NCBI GenBank assembly: GCA_041552135.1
Contig: JBFELL010000002.1
Span: 1 to 47,456, forward strand
Reading direction: 5' to 3'
DNA: 47,456 nt
DNA from: Gammaproteobacteria bacterium
GTDB taxonomy: Bacteria > Pseudomonadota > Gammaproteobacteria > UBA9214
The position numbers and the translations under genes were made by a program. The number at the start of each line of letters is the position of its first letter. Position 1 is the stretch's first letter. Of the stretch, positions 817 through 24,799 are shown piece after piece. The notes beneath the pieces are model-generated. The model made no database searches. It saw only the letters and a list, made by a program, of their open reading frames with translations, and was not told where the DNA came from.

Positions 817-1631
817 CCCGTCTGGCATGCCTGCTTGCACTCTCCACTACGGTGTTGCTGTCAGCATGCAGCAACCGGCCGGTTGTGCCAGGGCCCCACG
901 AATCCCTGAATGCCTCCCTGTGGACGCAGACGTCTGCGGAGTATGCCGCCAGTACCACACAGGCCTACCACAATGCACGGGTGAATATCGACCGCGCACT
1001 GGCCGATCCGCAGTGGACTGCCGCGCTGGAACAACAGGGTGACTATGCGAACCTGCCTCCGGTTATCCTGATGGATATCGATCAAACCGTGCTGGACAAC
1101 AGCGGTTACAACACGCAGATGATACTGGCAGGCGAGCAACATACGCTTGAGCGGTTTTCCGCATGGTGTGAGGCGTTTGCCCCGGCCATACCCGGTGTGA
1201 AGCCCTTCATGGACTACGCCACGGCCCGGGGCGTCACGATTGCCTACTACAGCGCACGCCCGGAGTCTTTGCGCGACTGCACGACACGCAACCTGCAGGC
1301 CTACGGCCTGCCGCTGGCCGACCAGGCGTTGTTGTTGCTGAATGACGGCACGCCGGCGACCAGCAAGGGGCAGCAGCGCAGCAAGCTGGCAGGACGTTAT
1401 CGCATCCTGCTGATCGTCGGCGACAACCTGGATGATTTCCTCAGCGGTTCAAAGGTCAGTCCGGCAGCGCGCCTTTCGCTTGCAGAACAGCACGGGGCTC
1501 GCTGGGGCAGCGAGTGGATTATCCTTCCGAACCCGATGTACGGCCACTGGGAAGCGTCGATCTACGGCTTTGACCGTTCACTGCCCCGCCAGGAACGGGT
1601 CAACAGGAAGTTGCAGCATTTGTCCGACTGA
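813..1631 (+). CDS. class C acid phosphatase / 5'-nucleotidase lipoprotein, e(P4) family (HAD superfamily)
   Basis: The N-terminus has a lipoprotein signal with lipobox LSAC. HAD DDDD-type motifs are present (MDIDQTVLDN, IVGDNLDDF). Length is 272 aa. The start is translationally coupled to the upstream ORF. Confidence 0.8.
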   Translation: MTRLACLLALSTTVLLSACSNRPVVPGPHESLNASLWTQTSAEYAASTTQAYHNARVNIDRALADPQWTAALEQQGDYANLPPVILMDIDQTVLDNSGYNTQMILAGEQHTLERFSAWCEAFAPAIPGVKPFMDYATARGVTIAYYSARPESLRDCTTRNLQAYGLPLADQALLLLNDGTPATSKGQQRSKLAGRYRILLIVGDNLDDFLSGSKVSPAARLSLAEQHGARWGSEWIILPNPMYGHWEASIYGFDRSLPRQERVNRKLQHLSD

Positions 1632-1717
1632 CATGGTGATATCCCGCGAGGATTCCCGATTCCCGCAAGGGCAGCGATCCGGTTGCAGAACACCTGTTCC
1701 ATGGTGCACCAGAACTG

Positions 1718-3103
1718 CTACTTCCCACCCCCGGGAACAGCCTCACCCGCACGGCGGTGCTCCTTCACCAGCAATACGCCGGCGACCAGCCAGCACAGGA
1801 CCAGGAACACGTTGAAGGCAAAGAACTGTGCAGTGGCCAGTGCCAGCAGGTGCACACCAACCAGCACCGTTATCGCGGCCAGGCCGTCACCCAGGCGAAC
1901 GTACAGGGTATCGATGGCCGGCTTGCCGCGAAACTTCATGGCGGAACTGACCGGCAACCACAGCACGTGGCGCGAGGTGTTATTCAGCGAATAGTCCGTG
2001 GCGTTCTCGGCGATCTTCATCACCTTGACCACTGCCAGCACCGGCAGCAGCGCCATCAGTGTATAGGAGGTCAGCGCGATCACCGGCAGTATCAGCAGGA
2101 TGGCCGCAAAGCCGCCGTACTTCAGCAGGCGGGACGCGACGAAGGCCTGCAATATCAGCGCAACACAGTTTACCCAGAAATAGAAGTTGCCGTAAAAACC
2201 GGTGGTGCCGTCGCGGACAAACTCCTGCAGCATGCGTTCATCGGTAATCCCCTCTGCACCGGCCTGCACGGCAAGTGATTCCTGAATGACACGAAACAGC
2301 AGGTTCTCGCCATTGGTATTGACCCAGTTGGTGAACAGCGTGACCAGTGCCGCCAGCAGCAGGAACTTGCTTACCAGTACCAGCCTTGCACCACTCCAGA
2401 TGCTGGCCTTGCTGGCATCCTTGCCCGGCACCGGCTCGTTGGCTGTTTCGCCATGGCGGTTCTCGCGCTGGTCGACCTTGCGCACCAGTACGATGGAGGC
2501 GAGCAGGGGCAGGACGGCGATCAGTAGCAGGGCCTCGGTTGGCACGGTGCCGGAAGAGACCAGCTTGTCGACGACCCATGAGCCGAACGCGGCACCGGAA
2601 GTCGCGCCGACCGCAATAAAGGGCAGCATGCGTTTGCCGCGTTCATCGGTATAGATGTCGGCGCAAAAGGTCCAGAACTGCGCCACCACGAACACGCCGA
2701 ACATGCCGACCCACAGGTAGTAGACAATGCCGGACAGCGGCAGCTGCTCGAAAAAGAAGTGGGGCTGCAGGAACCAGAAGATCACCATGTTGGAGATGCA
2801 GAACAGCGTGGCGCGAGTGAACAGGGTGACGCGATCCCAGCGGTCCGCGAGGCGTGCATACCAGCCGACCACGAACAGCAGCAGGATGCTCTGGGCAAAG
2901 CTGGAATAGGCCTTGACCTCCATCTTGGTCAGGCCCTCGATATCAGAGACCGCGATCCAGCCCTCGCGCAGCGGCTTGATGAAATAGTAGGCCAGCAGGA
3001 TGAGAAACACGTTGGCGAACATCATGACCGCGGTGCCGCCTTCGCCGGGTTTTACCACGGTGAACAGGCGCAGCAGTCGTTCTGTGCGTGATAGCGCTTG
3101 CAT
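1718..3103 (-). CDS. multi-pass membrane transporter, ATP:ADP antiporter (TLC/AAA)-like MFS-type protein
   Basis: 461-aa ORF with about 11-12 hydrophobic segments. The N-terminal pattern (KPGEGGTAVMMFANVFLILLAYYFIKPLREG) resembles the Npt/TLC nucleotide-transporter family as I remember it. Substrate is unknown. Confidence 0.55.
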   Translation of the reverse strand: MQALSRTERLLRLFTVVKPGEGGTAVMMFANVFLILLAYYFIKPLREGWIAVSDIEGLTKMEVKAYSSFAQSILLLFVVGWYARLADRWDRVTLFTRATLFCISNMVIFWFLQPHFFFEQLPLSGIVYYLWVGMFGVFVVAQFWTFCADIYTDERGKRMLPFIAVGATSGAAFGSWVVDKLVSSGTVPTEALLLIAVLPLLASIVLVRKVDQRENRHGETANEPVPGKDASKASIWSGARLVLVSKFLLLAALVTLFTNWVNTNGENLLFRVIQESLAVQAGAEGITDERMLQEFVRDGTTGFYGNFYFWVNCVALILQAFVASRLLKYGGFAAILLILPVIALTSYTLMALLPVLAVVKVMKIAENATDYSLNNTSRHVLWLPVSSAMKFRGKPAIDTLYVRLGDGLAAITVLVGVHLLALATAQFFAFNVFLVLCWLVAGVLLVKEHRRAGEAVPGGGK

Positions 3104-3481
3104 GATCAGCGGTCCGTCGTAGCCTGGTGCCGGGCGCCATTATAGGGGAGTACGGCCGGAACCGGCGGTCCTGCGGTAATTTTCGCTGACAAATCCAGGT
3201 CAATCCGCGATATTCATCGCCACATCAAACAGTAGGGGCAGGCATGTTGAAGGTACTCTTCGGAGATGTTCAGGCCGGACAGCTGTCACGTCTGCCCTAT
3301 CCCGGCTAGCCACGGTTGCTCCCGGTACTGACGGTCGTGGTCGGCGCGGCAATCGCCATAGCCGCTGGTGTTCGCCAGCCGCTCATGGCCGGCGACCGGA
3401 GGCGCGGGTCACCGCACCGCAGCCGGTGGCCGATCAACCCTGCCGGCGCTGGCTGCGACCGGTACCTGGCGGGTAAGGGGT

Positions 3482-3716
3482 TTCACCGCAAGGGACAGGC
3501 AGGTCGGGTCAGGTGCACAGCAGCGTAACCCGACAGCGGTAGAGCCCCCTGTGCCGGATGACGGCCTTCGGCCTGATCCGGCCTGCAGACACCTTTGTAA
3601 CCCGCAGGTATCCCCTGCCCTTCGCGACGAAGAAGTCCTGTCTGCGCCCTCTCGGTAACGGCTCCATGCGCTACCCTGCCTCCTGCATCACTGCAGTCGT
3701 GCGTCTCCGCGGTGAA
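3482..3716. repeat. palindromic MITE/REP-like element, TTCACCGC family (copy A)
   Basis: The left end is TTCACCGCAAGGGACAGG. The right end GTGCGTCTCCGCGGTGAA is the reverse complement of TTCACCGCGGAGACGCAC. Internal hairpins include CCGGATgacGGCCttcGGCCtgATCCGG at about 3553-3580. It lies in a 630-bp gene-free gap. Confidence 0.5.
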
Positions 3717-3735
3717 GACAGGCGCCACATGCCAG

Positions 3736-4212
3736 TTACAGTAAATACACCATCATCTGCAACAGGGCCCCGGCAAACACACCCGCGATCACGTCATCCA
3801 GCATGATCCCTGTCCCGCCGTGTACGCGGCGGTCAAACCACCCAATCGGCCAGGGCTTGAGAATGTCGAACAGGCGAAACAGGACAAAGCCTGCCGCGAC
3901 CCACAACCAGCCGGCCGGTGCCGCGGTCATCGTGATCAGGTAGCCGACAATCTCGTCCCAGACAATCGCGGGATGGTCATGCACACCGAGTCGCGCGGCG
4001 GTGTAGCCGCAGACCAGTATGCCGCCGAACACAGACACCAGCACCAGCGCGAGGTAGGCGCCCAGCGACAGGTCCTGCAGCAGCAGGTAGAGCGGTATGG
4101 CGGCCAGGGTACCGGCCGTGCCCGGCGCCACCGGCAGCAGGCCGCTGCCAAAGCCCAGGGCAAGGAAGCAGGAGGGATTCAGCAACTGGCGGGCAGTGAC
4201 CGGTTCAGCCAT
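3736..4212 (-). CDS. pgpA: phosphatidylglycerophosphatase A
   Basis: PgpA-typical blocks are present (GFGSGLLPVAPGTAGTLAAIP, WDEIVGY, FRLFDILKPWPIGW, GIMLDDVIAG). I chose the ATG at 4212, which forms an ATGGCTGA overlap with the thiL stop. The longer track ORF (to 4326) would overlap thiL by 120 nt. Confidence 0.85.
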   Translation of the reverse strand: MAEPVTARQLLNPSCFLALGFGSGLLPVAPGTAGTLAAIPLYLLLQDLSLGAYLALVLVSVFGGILVCGYTAARLGVHDHPAIVWDEIVGYLITMTAAPAGWLWVAAGFVLFRLFDILKPWPIGWFDRRVHGGTGIMLDDVIAGVFAGALLQMMVYLL

Positions 4213-15397: not shown

Positions 15398-16870
15398 ATG
15401 TCCCGAAGTAACGCCGATAAAACCCGCGAGTTTCAGAAGAAAATGCGCACACAGGGAGCCGCCGGTTTCGCCGCCGGCCCCTGGAAGGATGTCGAGGAGT
15501 CCCTCGGCATGGACCAGTCCGTTGTCGTCGACCAGGATGGCAATCCGGTCTGGTCAGTACAGCACACTCGCAAGCCCCGACATGCGGTCTCGCGCAGCGG
15601 CTTCGACCGGCTGCTGGGCGGGGTGGCCGTACTGGCGCTTGCCACGCTGCTCACCAGCGCGCTGGCCATCTATTTCGAGCAGACACGCGAACCCGGCGAC
15701 GGCGGCCGGATTGCCGGCAGCGAGACGGCAAGCGATACGGATGCCGGGAACACGATTACCCTGCTGCGACCGCCCGCGGCGGGTTACATTGACCGGCCGG
15801 CCGTTGAAGTGGTGGAAAATTCCGCGAGCGACAGGGACATCATGCAGGGCACCCTGGATACCGCCACAGCGCCAGCCACCGGGGACAGGCTGCCGGGCAT
15901 GACTGAAACCGGCACCGATCAGGGCCTCGCCAGCGCAGCGCCCGGCGCGACAGCCGGAACACCCCCGGTCAGCGACGCCATGGCGGCAACCGGCACGCCG
16001 GACACGACCACCGGGATTGCGGCCAGGGATGAGGCAAGCGCCTCTCTGCCCGAATCGCCCGCACTGGACCACACCGCCGCGGCGCCGGTGGATGCCCTGT
16101 CAGCCCTCGACCCGGACACGGCGCAGGACATCGAGGCCATCACGCGGCAGGAACCGCCCGCGGCCAGTGCCGGACCGACGGCATCGGCCGGCATGACCCG
16201 CGAGGTGGCAAGCGGGACACCACCGGTTGCCGCACCAGCCACGGCCGATGAAACCCTGACCGCCATTGAGCCGCCAGCCGGCCCTGACCTGACCGCTGGC
16301 GCATCGGCACCTGTCCTCGCAGAGACCCCGCAAGACATGCCGGCCATGGCAGATGCAGATACCGCGGTGATGACCGCTGCCATGGAAAGCCCCGACCCCG
16401 GCGAACCGGCCAGTCCCGATCTGGCGGCAGCGGACAGGCTGACTGGGGCGGCGCAGGCGAACCCCATGCCGCAAACCAGCGCAGTGTCGCCGGCAGACAC
16501 CCAGACCACCGGCACGAACCGGCTGGCCCAGCTGGAGCCGGCAACCCCCCCCGTGTCGCCTGCCGGCGCTGTCGCGACTGAACTCGGGGAAACCGCGCCG
16601 GAGACCGTGGATGGGGTGCCCCTGCCGGGGGTTACCGGCCGCTGGATCATTAACCTGGCGTCTTACGCCGGCCCGAAGACCGCCAGTCGCATGCAGCAGA
16701 AATTCGAGGCCCTCGGTGTCAGTACCGAGAAGCAGGTCGCCGAGGTGAACGGCGCGACCATGTACCGCCTGCGCATCGCCTCCTTCGAGTCCCGCGGGGA
16801 TGCCGAGGCCTACTTCGATTCCATCAAGGACACGCTGGGCCTGGAGTCGGCCTGGATCACGAAGAAATAA
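15398..16870 (+). CDS. SPOR domain-containing membrane protein with a long Ala/Pro/Thr-rich linker
   Basis: It has one transmembrane segment (VAVLALATLLTSALAIYF), about 330 aa of low-complexity A/P/T/D sequence, and a C-terminal SPOR-like domain (WIINLASY...YRLRIASFESRGDAEAY). Confidence 0.8.
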   Translation: MSRSNADKTREFQKKMRTQGAAGFAAGPWKDVEESLGMDQSVVVDQDGNPVWSVQHTRKPRHAVSRSGFDRLLGGVAVLALATLLTSALAIYFEQTREPGDGGRIAGSETASDTDAGNTITLLRPPAAGYIDRPAVEVVENSASDRDIMQGTLDTATAPATGDRLPGMTETGTDQGLASAAPGATAGTPPVSDAMAATGTPDTTTGIAARDEASASLPESPALDHTAAAPVDALSALDPDTAQDIEAITRQEPPAASAGPTASAGMTREVASGTPPVAAPATADETLTAIEPPAGPDLTAGASAPVLAETPQDMPAMADADTAVMTAAMESPDPGEPASPDLAAADRLTGAAQANPMPQTSAVSPADTQTTGTNRLAQLEPATPPVSPAGAVATELGETAPETVDGVPLPGVTGRWIINLASYAGPKTASRMQQKFEALGVSTEKQVAEVNGATMYRLRIASFESRGDAEAYFDSIKDTLGLESAWITKK

Positions 16871-16930: not shown

Positions 16931-17728
16931 CTACGGGAAGATCGCCTTCAGAAACGCCTGCAGCCGCTGCCAGGAATCCGCATCGGCCTTCGCATCGTAG
17001 GCCAGCGGCATGTCGAATTGCTTGCCGAAGCTGTCGGCATCGGGGTTGGTAAAGCTGTGCCTGACGCCGGGATAGTTCACCAGCGTGAAGTCGACACCGG
17101 CGGCTTCCATCTCCTGCTCGAATGCCTGTACCTGTTCCGGCGGCACGAAGGGATCGGCGGCACCGTTCAGCACCAGCACGCGGGCCTTCACTCTGCCGGG
17201 TTGCGCCGGCGACTGAGTCCCGAGGCTGCCATGGAAACTCGCCACGCCGTCCAGGTCCATGCCGGCACGCGCCATGTGCAGCACCATGCCACCACCGAAA
17301 CAGTAACCAATGGCCGCGATACGCTCTGCATCCACCGTATCCTGCTGGCGGAGAACCTCGAGCGCCCTGCCGAATCTGGCCTGTGCCGCCTGCATGTCCG
17401 ACGTCACGGCCGTCATGAACCGCTTTGCATCATCCGGATGGTCCGCGAGTTTTCCGCTGCCATACATGTCCAGGGCAAACGCCGTGTAGCCAAGCCCGGC
17501 CAGCATCTCGGCGCGCTTGCGCACATAGGGATTGTGGCCCCACCACTCGTGCACCACCAGCACACCGGGGCGCCTTGCCGTACTGGCATCGTCCCATGCC
17601 AGGTAACCACTGAAGCTGTCATCACCCATGCGGTATTCAATGACCTCGGTGCGCAGGGCGGCAACGCCCGCGCCACTGCCCGCCGTGGCAAGGACCAGCA
17701 GCAAGATCAGACCTGGCGCTCGATTCAT
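16931..17728 (-). CDS. dienelactone hydrolase family protein (secreted)
   Basis: A signal peptide is followed by DLH-type alpha/beta-hydrolase motifs (VVHEWWGHN, GYCFGG nucleophile elbow). I chose the ATG at 17728 because it has a GGAGG 5 nt upstream. The track start at 17740 lies inside that SD. Confidence 0.85.
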   Translation of the reverse strand: MNRAPGLILLLVLATAGSGAGVAALRTEVIEYRMGDDSFSGYLAWDDASTARRPGVLVVHEWWGHNPYVRKRAEMLAGLGYTAFALDMYGSGKLADHPDDAKRFMTAVTSDMQAAQARFGRALEVLRQQDTVDAERIAAIGYCFGGGMVLHMARAGMDLDGVASFHGSLGTQSPAQPGRVKARVLVLNGAADPFVPPEQVQAFEQEMEAAGVDFTLVNYPGVRHSFTNPDADSFGKQFDMPLAYDAKADADSWQRLQAFLKAIFP

Positions 17729-17751
17729 AAAGACCTCCATGGCGATACAGG

Positions 17752-17921
17752 GTTAACGGCAATGGCACTTACTAAAGCACCAATCCAGATAAATAGCCAC
17801 GGAATCACACGGAAGATATCGACATTGTTAATGAATATTCCGTGTTTTTCAGTGTGCTTCCGTGGCGAATTGGAGGTCAATGGGGGACGACATCTCTCAA
17901 GTAAGTGCCATTCGGGTTAAC
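17752..17921. repeat. palindromic element with GTTAACGG-type ends (copy D) and a nested CACGGAA inverted repeat
   Basis: The outer inverted repeat is GTTAACGGCAATGGCACTTACT (17752-17773) and AGTAAGTGCCATTCGGGTTAAC (17900-17921), matching 19/22. The inner inverted repeat is GCCACGGAATCACACGG (17796-17812) and CAGTGTGCTTCCGTGGC (17850-17866). Confidence 0.6.
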
Positions 17922-18249
17922 GGTGAGAGCGGGAGCGCAACTGCCCGCCGAGCAACAGCATGCCCGCCAGCCCGACCAGAATGCCGGCCAGGATGATCCA
18001 CAGGCGAATGGTTTCGAAGAAATCACCGCGAATCAGCGGGTGATCGGCCGGCAGCAAGCCGAGCAGCACGATGGTAACGCCGGTCAGCACGATGCCGTCC
18101 GGGGTGGATCTGCCGGCCACCACGATATAGGCCAGCGTCTGCAGCAGCAGCGCACCGATAATCGCCAGGTTCGGGTCGGGCAGGGTGAAAAAGCAGACCA
18201 CCGCCAGTGCCGATATCAGGTAGGCGGCCCGCCGGATACCGGGCCTCAT
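17917..18249 (-). CDS. small hypothetical membrane protein (3 predicted TM segments)
   Basis: 110 aa counted from the internal ATG at 18249 (MRPGIRRAAYLISALAVV...), which has GGGAG upstream. The product is strongly hydrophobic with no recognisable family. Its TAA stop lies inside the right arm of repeat copy D. Confidence 0.45.
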   Translation of the reverse strand: MRPGIRRAAYLISALAVVCFFTLPDPNLAIIGALLLQTLAYIVVAGRSTPDGIVLTGVTIVLLGLLPADHPLIRGDFFETIRLWIILAGILVGLAGMLLLGGQLRSRSHR

Positions 18250-18380
18250 CGCTGGCCACTCCCGGTGCAGGGACAACCGGCACGGTTCGATAATAAATTG
18301 TTCGTCATAATGGTACGCTATGGCCGCCGGACAGGCAGGAGTAGCCGGGGTCCGGGAAAAACACAAACAGGAAAAACGCA

Positions 18381-19112
18381 TTGGAGCAAATACGACTTTT
18401 CCTCGGATCCGTGCTTTCCAGTGTACGTGATTTACTGCCGATTGTCCTTGTTGTGGCCTTCTTCCAGATCGTGGTACTGCAGGAACCGGTACCCAACCTG
18501 GACCGGATCCTTGCCGGTAGCCTGCTGGTCATCCTGGGCCTGGCCTTCTTCATCCGGGGGCTGGAACAGGGGCTGTTTCCGATCGGCGAATCGATCGCCT
18601 ATGCCTTTGCCCGCAAGGGCAACCTGTTCTGGTTGCTGCTGTTTGCCTTCGCCCTGGGCTTCGGCACCACCATTGCGGAACCGGCCCTGATCGCGGTCGC
18701 CGAGGAAGCTTCCGAGGTCGCCGCGATGGCGGGTTTCATCGAACATCACGAGGATGCGATGGAGGACTATGCCTTCGGGCTGCGACTGACGGTGGCACTG
18801 TCGGTCGGCTTTGCCATCCTCGTTGGCGTGTACCGCATCATCAAGGGCTGGCCGATCCAGTACTTCATTATCGGCGGTTATATTGGCGTCGTTGTCATGA
18901 CCGCCCTGGCGCCGCGCGAGATCATCGGCATCGCCTACGATTCGGGTGGCGTAACAACCTCGACCGTTACCGTGCCGCTGGTCACGGCACTGGGTGTGGG
19001 TCTGGCGGAAAGTATCAAGGGTCGCAATCCCATGGTCGATGGCTTCGGACTGATCGCCTTTGCCTCGCTGACACCGATGATCTTCGTCATGGGCTACGGC
19101 ATGGTGATCTGA
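18381..19112 (+). CDS. DUF1538-family integral membrane protein, paralogue 1
   Basis: 243 aa and multi-pass. The TTG start is supported by an N-terminal alignment with paralogue 2 and by AGGA 8 nt upstream. Shared motif blocks are [15 protein letters not shown] and [25 protein letters not shown]...[11 protein letters not shown]. The stop overlaps the next start (TGATG). Confidence 0.8.
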
Positions 19113-19912
19113 TGGAACTGCTTGCCCACCTGGCGCGAACCGGCATCGAGACCATTGACGATGTGCTGCCGGTTGCCGGCATCATCGTCGGTTTCCAGGT
19201 GCTGATCCTGCGCCAGCGCATCCCCAACCTGAAAAGCGTCGCGGTCGGAGTCCTCTACGTCCTGATCGGTCTCACGCTGTTTCTGGTCGGGCTGGAGGAG
19301 GCCCTGTTCCCGCTCGGCAAGCTGATGGCGACCCAGCTCACCGACCCGGAATTTATTTTCGGAACCACGGGCGCCATCGCCGAGGCGATGCGCTGGGATG
19401 ACTACCTGTGGGTCTATGTGTTCGCCGCCGCCATCGGTTTTGCCACGACGATTGCCGAACCGGCACTGATCGCCGTCGCCATCAAGGCGCAGCAGGTCTC
19501 GGCCGGGGCGATAACCGTCTGGGGCCTGCGCGTTGCCGTCGCCATCGGCGTCGCGGTCGGTATTGCGCTTGGCACCTTCCGGATCGTAACCGGCACACCA
19601 TTGCACTACTACATCATTGCCGGCTACATCGTCGTGGTCATCCAGACCGTGTTTGCCCCGCGCATGATCATTGCACTGGCCTACGATTCCGGCGGCGTCA
19701 CGACATCGACGGTGACGGTGCCACTGGTGGCGGCCCTCGGCCTCGGCCTGGCCAGCACGGTACCGGGGCGCACCCCGATGATTGACGGTTTCGGCCTCAT
19801 TGCCTTCGCCAGCCTGTTTCCGATCATGGCCGTGATGGGCTATGCACAGATCGGCGAATGGTGGGTGCGGCGCGTTATGGCGAAAAAGCAGGAATCCCGG
19901 CTGCGGGACTGA
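19112..19912 (+). CDS. DUF1538-family integral membrane protein, paralogue 2
   Basis: 266 aa. It has the same motif blocks as paralogue 1 ([40 protein letters not shown]...[11 protein letters not shown]). Confidence 0.8.
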   Translation: MELLAHLARTGIETIDDVLPVAGIIVGFQVLILRQRIPNLKSVAVGVLYVLIGLTLFLVGLEEALFPLGKLMATQLTDPEFIFGTTGAIAEAMRWDDYLWVYVFAAAIGFATTIAEPALIAVAIKAQQVSAGAITVWGLRVAVAIGVAVGIALGTFRIVTGTPLHYYIIAGYIVVVIQTVFAPRMIIALAYDSGGVTTSTVTVPLVAALGLGLASTVPGRTPMIDGFGLIAFASLFPIMAVMGYAQIGEWWVRRVMAKKQESRLRD

Positions 19913-19942
19913 CATGTTTAGCGTGCAAAGGAGTATACAGTC

Positions 19943-20293
19943 ATGCATTTCAAACTGATTATTGCCCTGGTTGATGACACCAGAACCAACATCATCATGG
20001 ACGCCGCCCGCAAGGCGGGCGCCACGGGTGCCACGGTACTGAGCCAGGTGCGTGGCGAGGGTATCGAGGAGGCCAAGACCTTCTTCGGCCTGAATCTGGA
20101 GTCCCAGCGCGACATGCTGCTGTTTCTGGTCGAGGAACACCTCGCGCGGGATATCCTGGAGTGCATTGCCGATATGGGCGGGTTTGAAGAGAAACCGGGC
20201 GCCGGCATCGCCTTCCAGCTGGATGTGGAAGACGCCCTTGGCGTGTCGGGCCAGATACGCAAACTCACAGATGTCGTGGAGGAAAAGCTATGA
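19943..20293 (+). CDS. PII-like (GlnB-fold) signal transduction protein
   Basis: 116 aa, with AAGGAG 9 nt upstream. The length and hydrophobic pattern follow the PII ferredoxin-like fold (FKLIIALV..., GATGATV, MLLFLV..., GAGIAFQLDV). The loop sequence is not that of canonical GlnB/GlnK. Confidence 0.75.
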   Translation: MHFKLIIALVDDTRTNIIMDAARKAGATGATVLSQVRGEGIEEAKTFFGLNLESQRDMLLFLVEEHLARDILECIADMGGFEEKPGAGIAFQLDVEDALGVSGQIRKLTDVVEEKL

Positions 20294-20685
20294 GCGCACA
20301 ACAACCTGTCCGTGTCAGCGATGTCATGACGCCCCGTTACCAGACGGTAGATGGCATGATGACGGTTGCCGAGGCCATCGAAAAGCTCAAGGCGAACAAT
20401 GCCATCGCCCTGATAGTCGACAAGCGCCACGACAACGACGAATACGGCATTGTCCTCATCAGGGATATCGCACGCGAGGTGCTGGCCAGGGACCGCGCAC
20501 CGGAGCGCGTGAACGTGTATGAGATCATGTCCAAGCCGGTCGTCAGCGTGGGCCCGGAAATGGATATACGCTATTGCGCCAGGCTGTTCAGCAAACTGGG
20601 CTTCTCTCATGCGCCGGTCATCCATGCCGGCAAGCTGCGGGGTATGGTCAGCTATTCTGACCTGGTCCTGAAGGGCCTGTGCTGA
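20290..20685 (+). CDS. CBS-pair domain protein
   Basis: 131 aa with two CBS motifs (VSDVMTPRYQTV...GIVLIRDI and VYEIMSKPVVSV...GMVSYSDL). The start overlaps the PII-like stop (ATGA). Confidence 0.85.
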   Translation: MSAQQPVRVSDVMTPRYQTVDGMMTVAEAIEKLKANNAIALIVDKRHDNDEYGIVLIRDIAREVLARDRAPERVNVYEIMSKPVVSVGPEMDIRYCARLFSKLGFSHAPVIHAGKLRGMVSYSDLVLKGLC

Positions 20686-21102
20686 GTGCATGTCAGCCCT
20701 GTCCAGCAGATCGCAGTGCTGCCGGACCGGGACCGACAGCACCACGCGACCCGTGCCGGATATTCAAACCCGAATCATGGCCTTGCCCCAGCAGCCGCCA
20801 GTGCCCGCCTCGCAGTCTGGTCGCTTACCCTGTAACCGCCCGGACGCATATGTCCCAGGTCCAGGCGGGCGCGCCGGCAATCACTGTTGCACCACTCCGG
20901 GCAACGCCCTTCCCGCACTGACCCCGTTGAATCTGCCGGCAGCGCGGGCAGGCATCGGCCGGCACCACAAATGTTTTTTATACTTATTTTCAGTTAATTG
21001 GATGAATATCACGACTCAGAAAATCACCGGCAGGCTACCTTGGCGCAGGGCCGCGAGATAAATTAGTATTTACTAATACTGCAGCGCATTGTAGGATGCG
21101 CT

Positions 21103-21137
21103 ATTATCTGAGAATTATTCTTAATTGAGAATCATTG
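21103..21137 (+). promoter_or_regulatory. putative Fur-box region upstream of feoA
   Basis: An array of GATAAT-like hexamers is present (ATTATC-t-GAGAAT-TATTCT-TAATT-GAGAAT-CATTGC). It includes a direct repeat TGAGAAT(T/C)ATT at 21109 and 21126. TGAGAATCATT matches the core of the Fur consensus TGATAATCATT at 10/11. It abuts the feoA ATG at 21140. Confidence 0.45.
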
Positions 21138-21139
21138 CC

Positions 21140-21382
21140 ATGTCGCGAGCTGCCCCCATTCTTCCCCTGAGCGAAGCCGCGATTGGCAAGCGGTTTCGCC
21201 TGGTGAAGATCAATGGCGGCCACCGTCTGACGCGACGGCTACTGGCGCTGGGCCTCAGTCTCGGCACCGAGTTCGAAGTGGTGCAGCGCCGCGGGCGCGG
21301 TGTGGTGGTGGCGCGCGACGGCAACCGGGTCGCGCTCGGTGAAGGCGTGGCGCAAAAGCTGCTGGGCGAGGCACTCGGCTGA
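21140..21382 (+). CDS. feoA: ferrous iron transport protein A
   Basis: 80 aa counted from the ATG at 21140; the track start at 21125 is a TTG inside the operator region. It has the SH3-like FeoA pattern (GKRFRLVKINGG...LLALGLSLGTEFEVV). TGATG overlap with feoB. Confidence 0.85.
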   Translation: MSRAAPILPLSEAAIGKRFRLVKINGGHRLTRRLLALGLSLGTEFEVVQRRGRGVVVARDGNRVALGEGVAQKLLGEALG

Positions 21383-23724
21383 TGCCCTGTCACGACACCA
21401 CCGGGAGCCCCGGTCATGACACTGGCCGCACGGCAATCACCATTGCCATCGCCGGCAATCCCAACTGTGGCAAGTCGGCACTGTTCAATGCGCTGACCGG
21501 GATACGCCAGAAGACCGGTAACTGGCCTGGCGTTACCGTTGACCGCAAGGAAGGCCGCTGCAGGATCGACGGCCGCGACGTCAGTGTCATCGACCTGCCG
21601 GGTATCTATTCGTTTGACGCAAGCTCACTCGACGAGCAGGTGACGCGCGACTACCTGCTCTCGCATGATGCCGACCTGGTCGTGAATGTGGTCGACGCCA
21701 CCAACCTCGAACGCAATCTCTATTTCACCGTTCAGTTGCTGGAGATGGGCGTGCCCCTGGTGCTGGCGCTGAACATGACAGACGTGGCACGCAAGCGCGG
21801 TATTCACATCGACGGCGCGGCGCTGGCCGAAAAACTCGGCTGCCCGGTGGTACCCATCGTGGCGACCAGTGGCGAGGGCCTGAGTGAGCTGCAGGCACGC
21901 ATGCTGGCAGTCGCCGACCGGACCGACACCGGTGGCTTCCCGCTCGCGCTGGACGACTCCATCGAACAGGCGCTGCTTCAGATTGAAGCGCTGATGCAGT
22001 TCGATGATCCGGTCAACCGGCGCTGGCTTGCACTGAAACTGCTCGAGGAGGATACCGATGTCGAACAGCCAGGGGAACTGGCCACCCTGCTGGCCGACCT
22101 GCGTCATCGCATTGCCGACCGGCATGGGCAGGAGACCGACCTCGTCATTGCCGACAGCCGTTACAGTCACGCGCACGCCCTTGCGCAGGCCGTGGTTGAG
22201 CACACCGCGGGCACCACCCGCACCCTGAGCGACAGCCTCGACCGGATCGTCCTCGGTCGCATGACCGGCATCCCGCTGTTCCTCGCCGTGATGTACCTGA
22301 TGTTCCTGTTCACCATCAATGTCGGCGGTGCCTTTATCGACTTTTTCGACGGCGTGGCCGGGGCCTTCTTTGTCGACGGTCTTGGCGAACTGATGTCGGC
22401 CGCCGGCAGCCCGGACTGGCTGCGCGTACTGGTCGCCGACGGTGCCGGCGCCGGCCTGCAGGTGGTGGCGACCTTTATTCCGATCATCGCCGCGCTGTAC
22501 CTGTTCCTTTCCGTACTGGAAGACTCCGGCTACATGGCACGCGCGGCCTTCGTCATGGACCGTTTCATGCGCGCCATCGGCCTGCCAGGCAAGGCCTTCG
22601 TACCGCTTATCGTCGGCTTTGGCTGCAACGTGCCGGCCATCATGGCAACACGCACACTCGAGAACGAGCGCGAACGCAAGCTGACCATACTGATGAATCC
22701 CTTCATGTCGTGCGGCGCACGTCTGCCCGTGTATGCGCTGTTCGCCGCGGCCTTCTTTCCGCAGTCGGGCCAGAACGTGGTGTTCGCGCTGTACCTTATC
22801 GGTATCGGCGTCGCCATCCTTACCGGCCTGCTGATGAAGCAATCCCTGCTGCCCGGCAGCAGCAGCGGCTTCATGATGGAACTGCCACCGTATCACCTGC
22901 CGACACTCAAGGGGGTGCTGCTGCGTGCATGGGACCGGGTACGTCTGTTCGTCAAGGAGGCCGGTCAGGTGATCGTGGTCATGGTGCTGGCGCTGAACGT
23001 ACTCAACTCGATTGGCACCGACGGCACGTTTGGTAACGAGAACACCGAGCATTCACTGCTCAGCGAGACCGCACGCATACTCACCCCGGCATTTACACCA
23101 CTGGGCGTCCAGGAGGACAACTGGCCGGCGGTGGTCGGCATATTCTCGGGCATCCTTGCAAAGGAAGTCGTTGTCGGCACGCTGGACAGCCTCTACACCC
23201 GCGTCGCCGCTCTGGAGTCCGGTCTGCTGGAGCAACCACCGTTCGATCTCTGGCAAAGCCTGAGCGAGGCAGCCGCCACCGTCCCGCGGAACCTGGCCGA
23301 ATTGTCGGACACCCTGCTCGACCCCCTTGGTATCAGCCTTGTCAGCGAGCAGGACGCGGCGGCCCATGATGTGAACCAGGCTGTATTCGGTGCGATGCAG
23401 GCGCGTTTTGACGGCCAGGTGGGCGCCTTCGCCTACCTGCTGTTCGTGCTGCTGTACTTCCCCTGCGTGGCAACCATCGGTGCCATCCGGCGCGAGACCG
23501 GCACCGGCTGGGCGGTATTTGTCGCCGCCTGGACTACCGGCATCGCCTACCTGACGGCAACCGTCTACTACCAGGCCGCAACCTGGAGCCTGCACCCGAC
23601 GAGCTCGCTTGGCTGGATTGGCACACTGCTGCTGGTCTTTGCCGGCATCGTGATTGGCCTGCGCCTCTGGGCGCGCCGCGGGCGCCGCCGGCGTATCGGC
23701 TCAATCGACTGGGCGGAGCAATGA
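21382..23724 (+). CDS. feoB: ferrous iron transporter FeoB
   Basis: 780 aa. An N-terminal G-domain (GNPNCGKSALFNALTG, DLPG, NMTD) is followed by a polytopic membrane domain. Confidence 0.95.
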   Translation: MPCHDTTGSPGHDTGRTAITIAIAGNPNCGKSALFNALTGIRQKTGNWPGVTVDRKEGRCRIDGRDVSVIDLPGIYSFDASSLDEQVTRDYLLSHDADLVVNVVDATNLERNLYFTVQLLEMGVPLVLALNMTDVARKRGIHIDGAALAEKLGCPVVPIVATSGEGLSELQARMLAVADRTDTGGFPLALDDSIEQALLQIEALMQFDDPVNRRWLALKLLEEDTDVEQPGELATLLADLRHRIADRHGQETDLVIADSRYSHAHALAQAVVEHTAGTTRTLSDSLDRIVLGRMTGIPLFLAVMYLMFLFTINVGGAFIDFFDGVAGAFFVDGLGELMSAAGSPDWLRVLVADGAGAGLQVVATFIPIIAALYLFLSVLEDSGYMARAAFVMDRFMRAIGLPGKAFVPLIVGFGCNVPAIMATRTLENERERKLTILMNPFMSCGARLPVYALFAAAFFPQSGQNVVFALYLIGIGVAILTGLLMKQSLLPGSSSGFMMELPPYHLPTLKGVLLRAWDRVRLFVKEAGQVIVVMVLALNVLNSIGTDGTFGNENTEHSLLSETARILTPAFTPLGVQEDNWPAVVGIFSGILAKEVVVGTLDSLYTRVAALESGLLEQPPFDLWQSLSEAAATVPRNLAELSDTLLDPLGISLVSEQDAAAHDVNQAVFGAMQARFDGQVGAFAYLLFVLLYFPCVATIGAIRRETGTGWAVFVAAWTTGIAYLTATVYYQAATWSLHPTSSLGWIGTLLLVFAGIVIGLRLWARRGRRRRIGSIDWAEQ

Positions 23725-23993
23725 TCCTCGCCGACATCCTCGAGTTCCTGCAGCAGCGTGACGCGGCCAGTCTCGGCGATATTGCGCGGCATGTCGGCGC
23801 GGAACCTGCCGCCGTGCGCGACATGCTTCACACCCTGCAGCGCAAGGGCAAGGTGCATCGTCCGGCGCTGGGCGGCGGCTGCGGCAGCACCTGCCAGCAG
23901 TGCGCGGCAGGCAGCGTCGAGCTCTATGCCTGGGGCCCGCAGAAGGCATTGACGCCGCTAGCGCCACAGTGCGCTGCGCCCGCAGATCCCTGA
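23721..23993 (+). CDS. feoC: FeoC-like winged-helix protein with a Cys cluster
   Basis: 90 aa with an ATGA overlap on the feoB stop. The N-terminus ILADILEFLQQRDAASLGDIARHVG is FeoC-like. A Cys-rich loop (GGGCGSTCQQCAAGS) follows. Confidence 0.7.
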   Translation: MILADILEFLQQRDAASLGDIARHVGAEPAAVRDMLHTLQRKGKVHRPALGGGCGSTCQQCAAGSVELYAWGPQKALTPLAPQCAAPADP

Positions 23994-24121
23994 CCCCTCC
24001 GTCCGGTCCCCGTTCACGGCCGCCATAACCCGTGATTGACGGGCCGTGCGATGCACACCATGCTGCAGCTGGCAACTCCGGATACCTGAACCCGGGTGAC
24101 GCCACCGACTGGAGACACATC

Positions 24122-24799
24122 ATGCAGATTCTGCATCGCGATAATTTACCCCTGGGTGGTTTCGCAGGTCTGCGCGAGCACCGCCTGGTGATGGGCTCGA
24201 AGGTCTTCGCCAGGCACCGGGACCCTGGGGCCTGGGATGGTATCGGTAATTTCGTCTATCTCGCGGACGCCAGGTTCCTGCCTGGAGGTGAAACACAGCT
24301 GCACAGCCACCGGGAGATCGATGTGATCTCCGTGATGGTGGAAGGCCGGATCGCACACGAGGGATCGCTCGAACACGGCAAGGAGATGCGCGGCACGGAC
24401 GTCCAGGTGCAACGCGCCGGTGGTGAAGGGTTTTCCCACAACGAGATCAATCCGGATGACACGGAAAACCGGATGATTCAGCTGTGGGTACTGCCTGAAC
24501 GACCGGGCGAACCCGCCGGCTATCTGTTCTATCAGCCAGGGCCCGGTGGCCTGACCCGCGTCTACGGTGGGGCGATCGGCCAGAAGGAGACCTTCCACAG
24601 CCACACCCTGGTTGATATCGGGCTACTCGAGACCGGGCAGACTGCCTCGGTCCGCGGATCGTATCTTGCCTACCTTACCCGTGGCGCCGGCCTGGTTAAC
24701 GGCACGCCCGTCAAGGACGGCGACCTGGTCCGGGGCAAAGACCTGGCTTTCTCTGCAACGGAAAATAGCCGACTCATCATTGTGCACCTGGCGCCGTAG
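24122..24799 (+). CDS. pirin family (bicupin) protein, YhhW-like
   Basis: 225 aa counted from the ATG at 24122. Cupin metal-site pattern HSHREIDVISVMVEGRIAHEGS...VQRAGGEGFSHNEIN...IQLWVLP, as in the pirin/quercetinase-like family. Confidence 0.7.
   Translation: MQILHRDNLPLGGFAGLREHRLVMGSKVFARHRDPGAWDGIGNFVYLADARFLPGGETQLHSHREIDVISVMVEGRIAHEGSLEHGKEMRGTDVQVQRAGGEGFSHNEINPDDTENRMIQLWVLPERPGEPAGYLFYQPGPGGLTRVYGGAIGQKETFHSHTLVDIGLLETGQTASVRGSYLAYLTRGAGLVNGTPVKDGDLVRGKDLAFSATENSRLIIVHLAP

Follow-up and report, generated by a model that had tools for sequence, protein, structure and literature searches.

A four-gene operon joining an UmpAB-like DUF1538 membrane pair to PII-like and CBS-pair proteins: a candidate regulated cation/proton antiporter

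Introduction

The closest described relative of the system discussed here is UmpAB of Halomonas zhaodongensis, a heterodimer of two DUF1538 membrane proteins that has been reported to be a Na+(Li+,K+)/H+ antiporter (PMC5484666). Namely, the Na+/H+-antiporter-deficient strain E. coli KNabc was rescued only when umpA and umpB were both expressed, the two proteins co-immunoprecipitated, and everted vesicles of KNabc carrying UmpAB showed pH-dependent Na+, Li+ and K+/H+ antiport (PMC5484666). This activity was obtained in E. coli without any PII or CBS gene, and the published 4.2-kb clone ends at umpB, with PII or CBS partners never mentioned in that report (PMC5484666). Here, we analyse an operon in a 47,456-nucleotide (nt) stretch of a gammaproteobacterial genome (GenBank assembly GCA_041552135.1, contig JBFELL010000002.1, positions 1 to 47,456), which we call the window. 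At positions 18381-20685 of its + strand, two paralogous DUF1538 genes, A and B, are followed by the genes for a PII-like protein and a stand-alone CBS-pair protein. We propose, with moderate confidence, that the operon encodes an UmpAB-type monovalent cation (Na+/K+/Li+)/H+ antiporter together with a docked PII-like regulator and a co-translated CBS regulator.

Both kinds of small protein have precedents in transport. Proteins of the PII fold regulate transporters in GlnK-AmtB and SbtB-SbtA and, as CPII, together with the DAB-type pumps for dissolved inorganic carbon (DIC), whereas CBS pairs, or Bateman modules, gate MgtE, OpuA/OpuC, ClC and CNNM/CorC from within the transporter or ATPase polypeptide. 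That said, we know of no description of a PII and a CBS sensor placed as a pair on one transporter, and our literature search found no indexed paper linking PII or CBS proteins to DUF1538.

Results

The two membrane proteins, subunit A (18381-19112, 243 amino acids (aa), TTG start) and subunit B (19112-19912, 266 aa), are both members of DUF1538 (Pfam PF07556, cut-off 22.6 bits) and match its profile over positions 1-211, A with E 8e-70 and 234.9 bits and B with E 6e-66 and 222.1 bits. They are 47% identical to each other (E 1e-72), and the conserved blocks from which an initial annotation of this DNA had concluded that they are paralogues are invariant between A, B and their orthologues in our alignment, which bears out that conclusion. 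The Pfam check of all four proteins likewise found what had been anticipated, that is, DUF1538 twice, one P-II domain and two CBS domains. What is more, the best NCBIfam model for A is UmpA (NF041627, Na,Li,K/H(+) antiporter subunit; 369.8 bits) and the best for B is UmpB (NF041628; 324.8 bits), both matched over the full length, with the model of the corresponding subunit beating that of the other subunit by more than 120 bits in each case. Scored with the UmpA model, the A of the window also exceeds all 10 tested single-domain representatives (233-275 aa) of 50%-identity clusters of the family.

The likeness to UmpAB extends to architecture. In both systems two adjacent, overlapping, paralogous DUF1538 genes, roughly 45% identical to each other, encode subunits with loops of their own and a hydrophilic C-terminal tail on the second one. 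In particular, A has an insertion between its 'AEPAL' block and the next transmembrane segment, as UmpA has a longer loop III-IV, and B has an insertion in the loop after transmembrane segment 2, following 'LFPLG', together with a charged hydrophilic C-terminal tail, as UmpB has a longer loop II-III and a hydrophilic tail. The two systems differ in that A and B score under the equivalog cut-offs of the two NCBIfam models, and in that the A-B pair here opens a conserved operon of four genes. The published UmpA cluster, at 54-93% identity, comprises Vibrio, Methyloglobulus, Methylosarcina, Thiohalospira and Mariprofundus (PMC5484666), which is the same assemblage as the one we recovered around the A of the window, and our own Vibrio and Methyloglobulus loci (L016, L047, L057) have all four genes. 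While the initial annotation held that DUF1538 has no experimentally assigned substrate, antiport has in fact been measured for UmpAB (PMC5484666). A family with a demonstrated substrate and mechanism had been named there as evidence against an uncharacterised transporter; of the two, it is the substrate that has been demonstrated. DUF1538 has also been listed among the Pfam features predictive of optimum growth pH, beside Mrp, Kdp and TrkH, which fits an ion or pH role only loosely. The family is large, with at least 8000 matches at E <=1e-10 in a word-index search and 2957 clusters at 50% identity (E <=0.001).

Is the association of this membrane pair with two small soluble proteins a peculiarity of one genome? 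We scanned species-representative genomes, retained the best 80 loci, in which A is 69-90% identical to that of the window, and placed the genes by tblastn; 75 of the loci are not cut by a contig end and can be assessed. The order A-B-PII-CBS is kept in 70 of these 75, two others have A-B-PII without CBS (Thiomicrorhabdus and Thiosulfatimonas; L019, L044), and in the remaining three A stands alone, one of them with a run of Ns. Counted by gene, PII is present in 73/80 loci and CBS in 70/75 assessable ones, and the median identity to the window drops along the operon, from 73% for A to 68% for B, 64% for the PII-like protein and 55% for the CBS protein. Where it could be measured, the ATGA overlap between the PII and CBS genes recurs in 42 of 47 loci, and A and B overlap by 1 nt in 27 of 42. 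The carriers are mostly Gammaproteobacteria, including sulfur oxidisers, methylotrophs and marine heterotrophs such as Vibrio, Thalassotalea, Marinobacterium and Pseudomaricurvus, with Thiobacillus, Zoogloeaceae, Gallionellaceae, Nitrospirales and others in addition. The order kept in 70 of 75 loci supports the earlier idea of a heteromeric transporter partnered by PII and CBS proteins as one module. Separately, quartets with an A 69-81% identical to that of the window lie on the contigs of L002 (CAVYIJ010000005.1), L050 and L080, labelled 'uncultured Halobacteria archaeon', Acidimicrobiia and Eiseniibacteriota, which points to mis-binning or recent horizontal transfer.

Clustering of the flanking open reading frames (ORFs) shows that only nadC (26 loci), ampD (23) and ampE (10) recur, and this is housekeeping synteny into which the module has been inserted. 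The module sits between nadC and ampD-ampE in L004, L005, L012, L013, L015 and about 20 other loci from many Gammaproteobacteria. In E. coli nadC and ampD-ampE are adjacent, and the module may have entered between them repeatedly or in an ancestor. A functional link through the flanking genes was considered and rejected, the recurrent flanks being housekeeping genes and the feoABC, pirin and dienelactone hydrolase neighbours in the window not being conserved. No carboxysome, RuBisCO, carbonic anhydrase or nitrogen gene flanks the module in the 80 loci.

The partnership with PII reaches much further than these loci. Next to DUF1538 genes whose products are 28-34% identical to A, a gene for a 'P-II family nitrogen regulator' follows directly in five of five annotated records, usually overlapping: in Paraclostridium, Vescimonas and Peptoclostridium it comes after a fused double-DUF1538 gene of ~500 aa, and in the Alphaproteobacteria Methylocystis and Chelativorans after two separate DUF1538 genes. 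Furthermore, several of 150 representatives of 50%-identity DUF1538 clusters have a C-terminal PII domain with no Met at the junction, and in Campylobacterota a single DUF1538-DUF1538-PII chain of ~655 aa occurs in at least 115 of the 120 90%-identity clusters listed, with a conserved linker of ~40 aa and some of the genes on contigs of 1.3-2.8 Mb. Such a naturally fused chain speaks strongly for physical contact between the PII-like protein and the transporter, at the end of the B-type domain. CBS-DUF1538 fusions, on the other hand, are absent from the 150 representatives. Since PII adjoins DUF1538 at ~30% identity and in fusions and CBS does not, DUF1538 with PII is the ancient core and the CBS pair a clade-specific addition. 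With regard to the initial annotation, then, the occurrence of PII with DUF1538 across phyla has been confirmed, while the CBS gene turned out to be confined to one clade and the flanks to be housekeeping genes; in the same way, of the "doubly ligand-gated" transporter it described, the PII link holds family-wide and the CBS link in that one clade only.

Some further variants deserve mention. The P-II partners in Clostridia are ~222 aa long (L081:4728-5396, L083:5521-6195, L084:4617-5285), and that of Peptoclostridium contains two PII stretches by HMMER, a tandem which suggests that it could form a pseudo-trimer in a different way. In one protein of 724 aa (P0243) a double DUF1538 ends in a cytidylate-kinase-like/AAA P-loop domain, another nucleotide-binding module, in place of PII. 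An apparent B-PII fusion (P0269) looks like a frameshift artefact and was discarded. As for genomic context, the Campylobacterota fusion gene lies directly 3', on the same strand, of an RCK-domain K+ channel gene and a separate RCK protein gene in 3 of the 4 genomes sampled. In the Arcobacteraceae/Campylobacterota loci L086-L090 the channel (Ion_trans_2 with TrkA_N/C) and the RCK protein are encoded between leuA and the fusion gene, at about 1600-4000 in each locus, and in L091 these genes are missing and leuA abuts the fusion gene.

One could argue that the PII-like and CBS proteins share the operon without regulating the transporter, for instance if the two of them, as a pair, controlled some other target in the cytosol, or if the CBS gene were a hitch-hiker. 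The activity of UmpAB in E. coli without either partner fits this, as does the lack of CBS from the A-B-PII operons of Thiomicrorhabdus and Thiosulfatimonas and from all distant clades. However, fusion of PII to the transporter across a whole phylum, along with adjacency at ~30% identity, makes independence very unlikely for PII, and for CBS the presence in 70 of 75 loci and the ATGA coupling to PII in 42 of 47, while the flanks vary, count against it. All in all, we find such a lack of regulation improbable, and regulation of the transporter by its operon partners remains the reading we prefer.

What can be said of the transporter itself? The sequence of A has no match in the PDB at E <=1. 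As a stand-in for a multimer prediction, we modelled the natural fusion P0404, whose first DUF1538 domain is 60% identical to A and whose second is 51% identical to B, with AlphaFold2 (AF2); the predicted local distance difference test (pLDDT) score is 76.6, and most of the transmembrane parts reach 80-90. In this model each DUF1538 domain comprises nine helical segments, and in both conserved blocks the helices break, once at '...TTIA|E|PAL' and once immediately following 'AYDxGGVT', in support of the discontinuous helices that had been suggested for the Gly/Thr-rich blocks. The internal repeat that had been read from the resemblance of these blocks within each protein was, in contrast, not borne out by profile-profile comparison: hhalign of the N-terminal against the C-terminal half gave a probability <3% and E 0.02-0.36 over at most 12 columns, in two runs, one with close orthologues and one with a family-wide alignment (Neff, the effective number of sequences, 5.4), sub-segments being compared as well. 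Across 121 diverse full-length domains only two charged residues are conserved in at least 99%, E100 ('TTIAEPAL') and D187 ('AYDSGG') in the numbering of the A of the window, and R152 is conserved in 86%. In the model, E100 sits within the first helix break and D187, still in a helix, a few residues ahead of the second, as one would expect of a site that binds cations or protons. When the A-B-PII model was compared with the PDB by Foldseek, the top 50 hits listed covered only the PII domain (E 4.8e-3 to ~0.02), and hence no solved transporter fold can be assigned.

The PII-like protein (19943-20293, 116 aa) matches Pfam P-II (PF00543) with 41.8 bits, the cut-off being 25, and in the NCBIfam search it matched no model. 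Its AF2 model (pLDDT 66) has the order beta-alpha-beta-beta-alpha-beta, with strands (E) and helices (H) at E3-11, H12-25, E29-36, E56-64, H65-79 and E88-95; residues 38-51 form a disordered loop, and 98-115 an additional helix at the C-terminus. The Pfam match and this fold with its short T-loop place the protein in the PII superfamily. The protein does not look like a canonical GlnB/GlnK: in an alignment to E. coli GlnB (22% identity, T-loop 5 residues shorter here), a comparison of lead quality, the equivalents of R38, Q39, K58, K90, R101, R103 and of Y51 are missing and the G-x-G-I-x-F B-loop is kept. It is for this reason that we speak of a PII-like protein rather than of GlnB or GlnK. 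Among orthologues, R37, E39, G40, T46, F47, G49 and L52 of the T-loop are invariant, a strong conservation that is expected of a partner-contacting loop. Foldseek gives a probability of 1.0 for CPII, SbtB, TTHA0516 and GlnK alike, and the margin of CPII/SbtB over GlnK is trivial (E 1.6e-6 versus 1.6e-5, with template-modelling (TM) scores of 0.54-0.61), so a specific likeness to CPII/SbtB cannot be read from E-values this close. Membership of the SbtB/CPII group was rejected also by neighbourhood, the neighbours being DUF1538 in 80 of 80 loci, with no DIC or carboxysome genes in the flanks. As with GlnK-AmtB, SbtB-SbtA and CPII-DAB, a small PII-fold protein is thus encoded directly after transporter genes, but here it accompanies a DUF1538 pair instead of Amt, SbtA or DAB; its T-loop is shorter, the canonical residues are missing and a C-terminal helix is added; in one phylum it is covalently fused to the transporter; and a CBS protein is co-encoded with it.

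Would a different substrate account equally well for these observations? A-B might physiologically carry K+ alone, as a channel or uniporter, or bicarbonate/DIC, ammonium, Mg2+ or an organic ion, with PII and CBS still gating it and the Na+/H+ exchange of UmpAB as a side activity. The sole functional data are heterologous, A and B stay under the equivalog cut-offs, and, with no solved relative of the membrane fold, the mechanism cannot be derived from structure. The K+-channel neighbours in Arcobacteraceae would fit a K+-specific role just as well, and the structurally nearest PII-like proteins, CPII and SbtB, are partners of inorganic-carbon transporters. Yet those Foldseek margins are too small to carry weight, and the gene surroundings in the 80 loci offer no carbon or nitrogen connection. 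Moreover, the module is found in many heterotrophs and its PII-only form in anaerobic gut Clostridia, and two invariant membrane carboxylates suit the binding of cations or protons rather than of anions. Inorganic carbon in particular, which had been put forward initially, is unsupported: the carriers include the heterotrophs Vibrio, Thalassotalea and Marinobacterium and, in the PII-only form, gut and soil Clostridia, the flanks are housekeeping genes, and the neighbours in Arcobacteraceae are K+ channels. We therefore regard another physiological substrate as possible but doubtful, and continue with monovalent cation/proton antiport.

The fourth protein (20290-20685, 131 aa) is a stand-alone CBS pair, or Bateman module. 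Pfam finds two CBS domains in it (E 5.5e-22, 78.3 bits), as a CBS pair demands, and its alignment with solved CBS pairs spans the whole protein. Nearest among these is the CBS pair of Microcystis aeruginosa CBS-CP12 (5nmu; E 1e-24; 41% identical across 121 residues aligned without gaps), a module which binds AMP and not ADP, ATP or cAMP (PMC6142219). By analogy, AMP is probably the ligand of the CBS protein here as well. The protein is not a CBS-CP12 itself, as it has no CP12 domain, ends 3 residues past the CBS pair and is 131 aa long versus 208 aa for 5nmu. In other words, the 41% identical CBS pair, AMP-specific in CBS-CP12, is what the two share, whereas the protein here stands alone in a transporter operon, with neither a CP12 domain nor a thioredoxin neighbour. 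It also matches, weakly, the NCBIfam models of MgtE and ClcB in their CBS regions. MgtE, OpuA/OpuC, ClC and CNNM/CorC likewise pair a Bateman module with an ion transporter, and differ in that the CBS pair here is a separate protein.

A further reading is that the PII-like and CBS proteins sense c-di-AMP and not the adenylate energy charge, in parallel to DarA/PstA (PII-like) and DarB/CbpB (CBS), receptors which are part of the K+/osmolyte homeostasis network of Firmicutes. c-di-AMP controls K+ and cation/H+ transporters, which counts for this idea, and so do a weak PDB sequence match of the PII-like protein to PstA (Lmo2692, E 0.16), the label YaaQ given by JGI to one orthologue, a weak NCBIfam CbpB match of the CBS protein (E 0.006) and the fact that SbtB binds c-di-AMP too (7obj, among the Foldseek matches listed). 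However, the PstA and CbpB matches are far under significance, the latter at 16.5 bits against a cut-off of 125, the match of the CBS protein to the AMP-specific CBS-CP12 module is far stronger (E 1e-24), and most Gammaproteobacteria are not known to have diadenylate cyclases. Neither protein has a significant match to DarA/PstA or DarB/CbpB, and membership of these receptor families was rejected. We give little credence to c-di-AMP as the ligand, and retain adenylate sensing as the preferred reading.

As for the layout in the window, all four ORFs lie on the + strand, and the tight packing described in the initial annotation was confirmed in the sequence. An AGGAAA Shine-Dalgarno sequence lies ~7 nt 5' of the TTG start of A, with which the N-termini of homologues align at the same first residue. 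At the A/B junction (TGATG, 19110-19114) the TGA of A and the ATG of B share 1 nt; a 30-nt spacer (19913-19942) follows B and supplies the PII-like gene with a ribosome-binding site, AAGGAG; and at the PII/CBS junction (ATGA, 20290-20293) the CBS start overlaps the PII stop codon. A promoter and terminator scan of 17700-21300 revealed no + strand sigma-70-like site 5' of A and no convincing terminator 3' of the CBS gene, and an Rfam scan of the whole window found no riboswitch or other RNA family.

Around the operon, a hydrophobic 154-aa ORF on the - strand (17917-18381) is divergent from A and abuts its start. It has no Pfam match and is kept only in the four closest loci (L001, L002, L003, L009), and could either encode a small membrane protein particular to this lineage or be a shadow ORF. 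On the other side, ~440 nt 3' of the CBS gene, the feoA-feoB-feoC operon for ferrous-iron uptake begins, followed by a pirin-family gene (21125-24799). Farther away, the C-terminal part of a 461-aa ORF (1718-3103, - strand) weakly matches the TLC ATP/ADP transporter family (26.7 bits versus a cut-off of 21, ~100 residues), and the middle of a 490-aa ORF (15398-16870) is a long low-complexity stretch rich in Ala, Pro and Thr, followed by a short structured C-terminus, in a region with many overlapping shadow ORFs on both strands owing to high GC content.

Discussion

Taken together, the likeness to UmpAB, the conserved operon and the natural fusions allow a model to be sketched. The two paralogous DUF1538 subunits A and B would build the antiporter, with ion and proton binding most likely centred on E100 and D187. 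The PII-like protein would dock on the cytoplasmic face, probably near the hydrophilic C-terminal tail of B, and could modulate transport according to the adenine nucleotide it binds, as happens in GlnK-AmtB or SbtB-SbtA. Should it form trimers, as other PII proteins do, three A-B units would come together in the complex, for which the PII precedent and the natural fusion are our grounds. The CBS-pair protein would add a second adenylate input, probably AMP, and act either on the PII-like protein or on the transporter. In short, two small nucleotide-sensor proteins probably switch the transporter on and off, and, as UmpAB works in E. coli without them, PII and CBS would be accessory regulators and not core subunits.

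The gene order, the homologies, the joint conservation of the genes, the natural fusions, the fold and the conserved residues are observations. In this model, we infer the substrate from the one characterised homologue, and we also infer the ligands, the stoichiometry, the direction of regulation and the contact of the CBS protein. Several points weigh against it. To begin with, the assignment of UmpAB comes from one heterologous study that used fluorescence-dequenching assays (PMC5484666). A and B fall short of the equivalog cut-offs of 490 and 500 bits, respectively, and functional identity with UmpAB is therefore not assured; NCBI would not name them UmpA and UmpB. In addition, the Halomonas umpAB locus is not among our best 80 loci. 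Confidence in the AF2 models is moderate (pLDDT 66 for the PII-like protein and 77 for P0404), and the PII-like protein lacks the canonical residues for binding ATP and 2-oxoglutarate (2-OG). Finally, the contact between the CBS protein and the transporter is an inferred one, and no CBS gene was found beside DUF1538 in the five distant records or beside the Campylobacterota fusions, nor any CBS fusion among the 150 representatives.

One may also take the model a step further. In that case, DUF1538 would be a structurally new class of ion transporters, working as PII-capped trimers of A-B units in energy-charge-gated homeostasis of K+/H+ or of another ion, instead of in simple Na+ extrusion, and a CBS protein that senses AMP would, in one large clade, work via or alongside the PII-like one. 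We consider this larger picture unlikely as it stands, and offer it as tentative.

The antiport function of a DUF1538 pair was already known from UmpAB, and the membrane pair studied here is a further member of that family. What we did not find described before is the regulatory layer of PII and CBS proteins, its distribution, with PII family-wide and CBS clade-specific, and the natural triple fusion. The very large DUF1538 family counts one functional paper and no structure, and the idea that it has no assigned substrate can now be corrected. As its members nearly always come with a PII-like protein, either encoded alongside or fused, the family presents a widespread new transporter target of PII outside nitrogen and carbon uptake. 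The module suggests that cation/proton antiport is tied to the energy state of the cell, and with it a large and structurally uncharted transporter family gains a regulatory model that can be tested.

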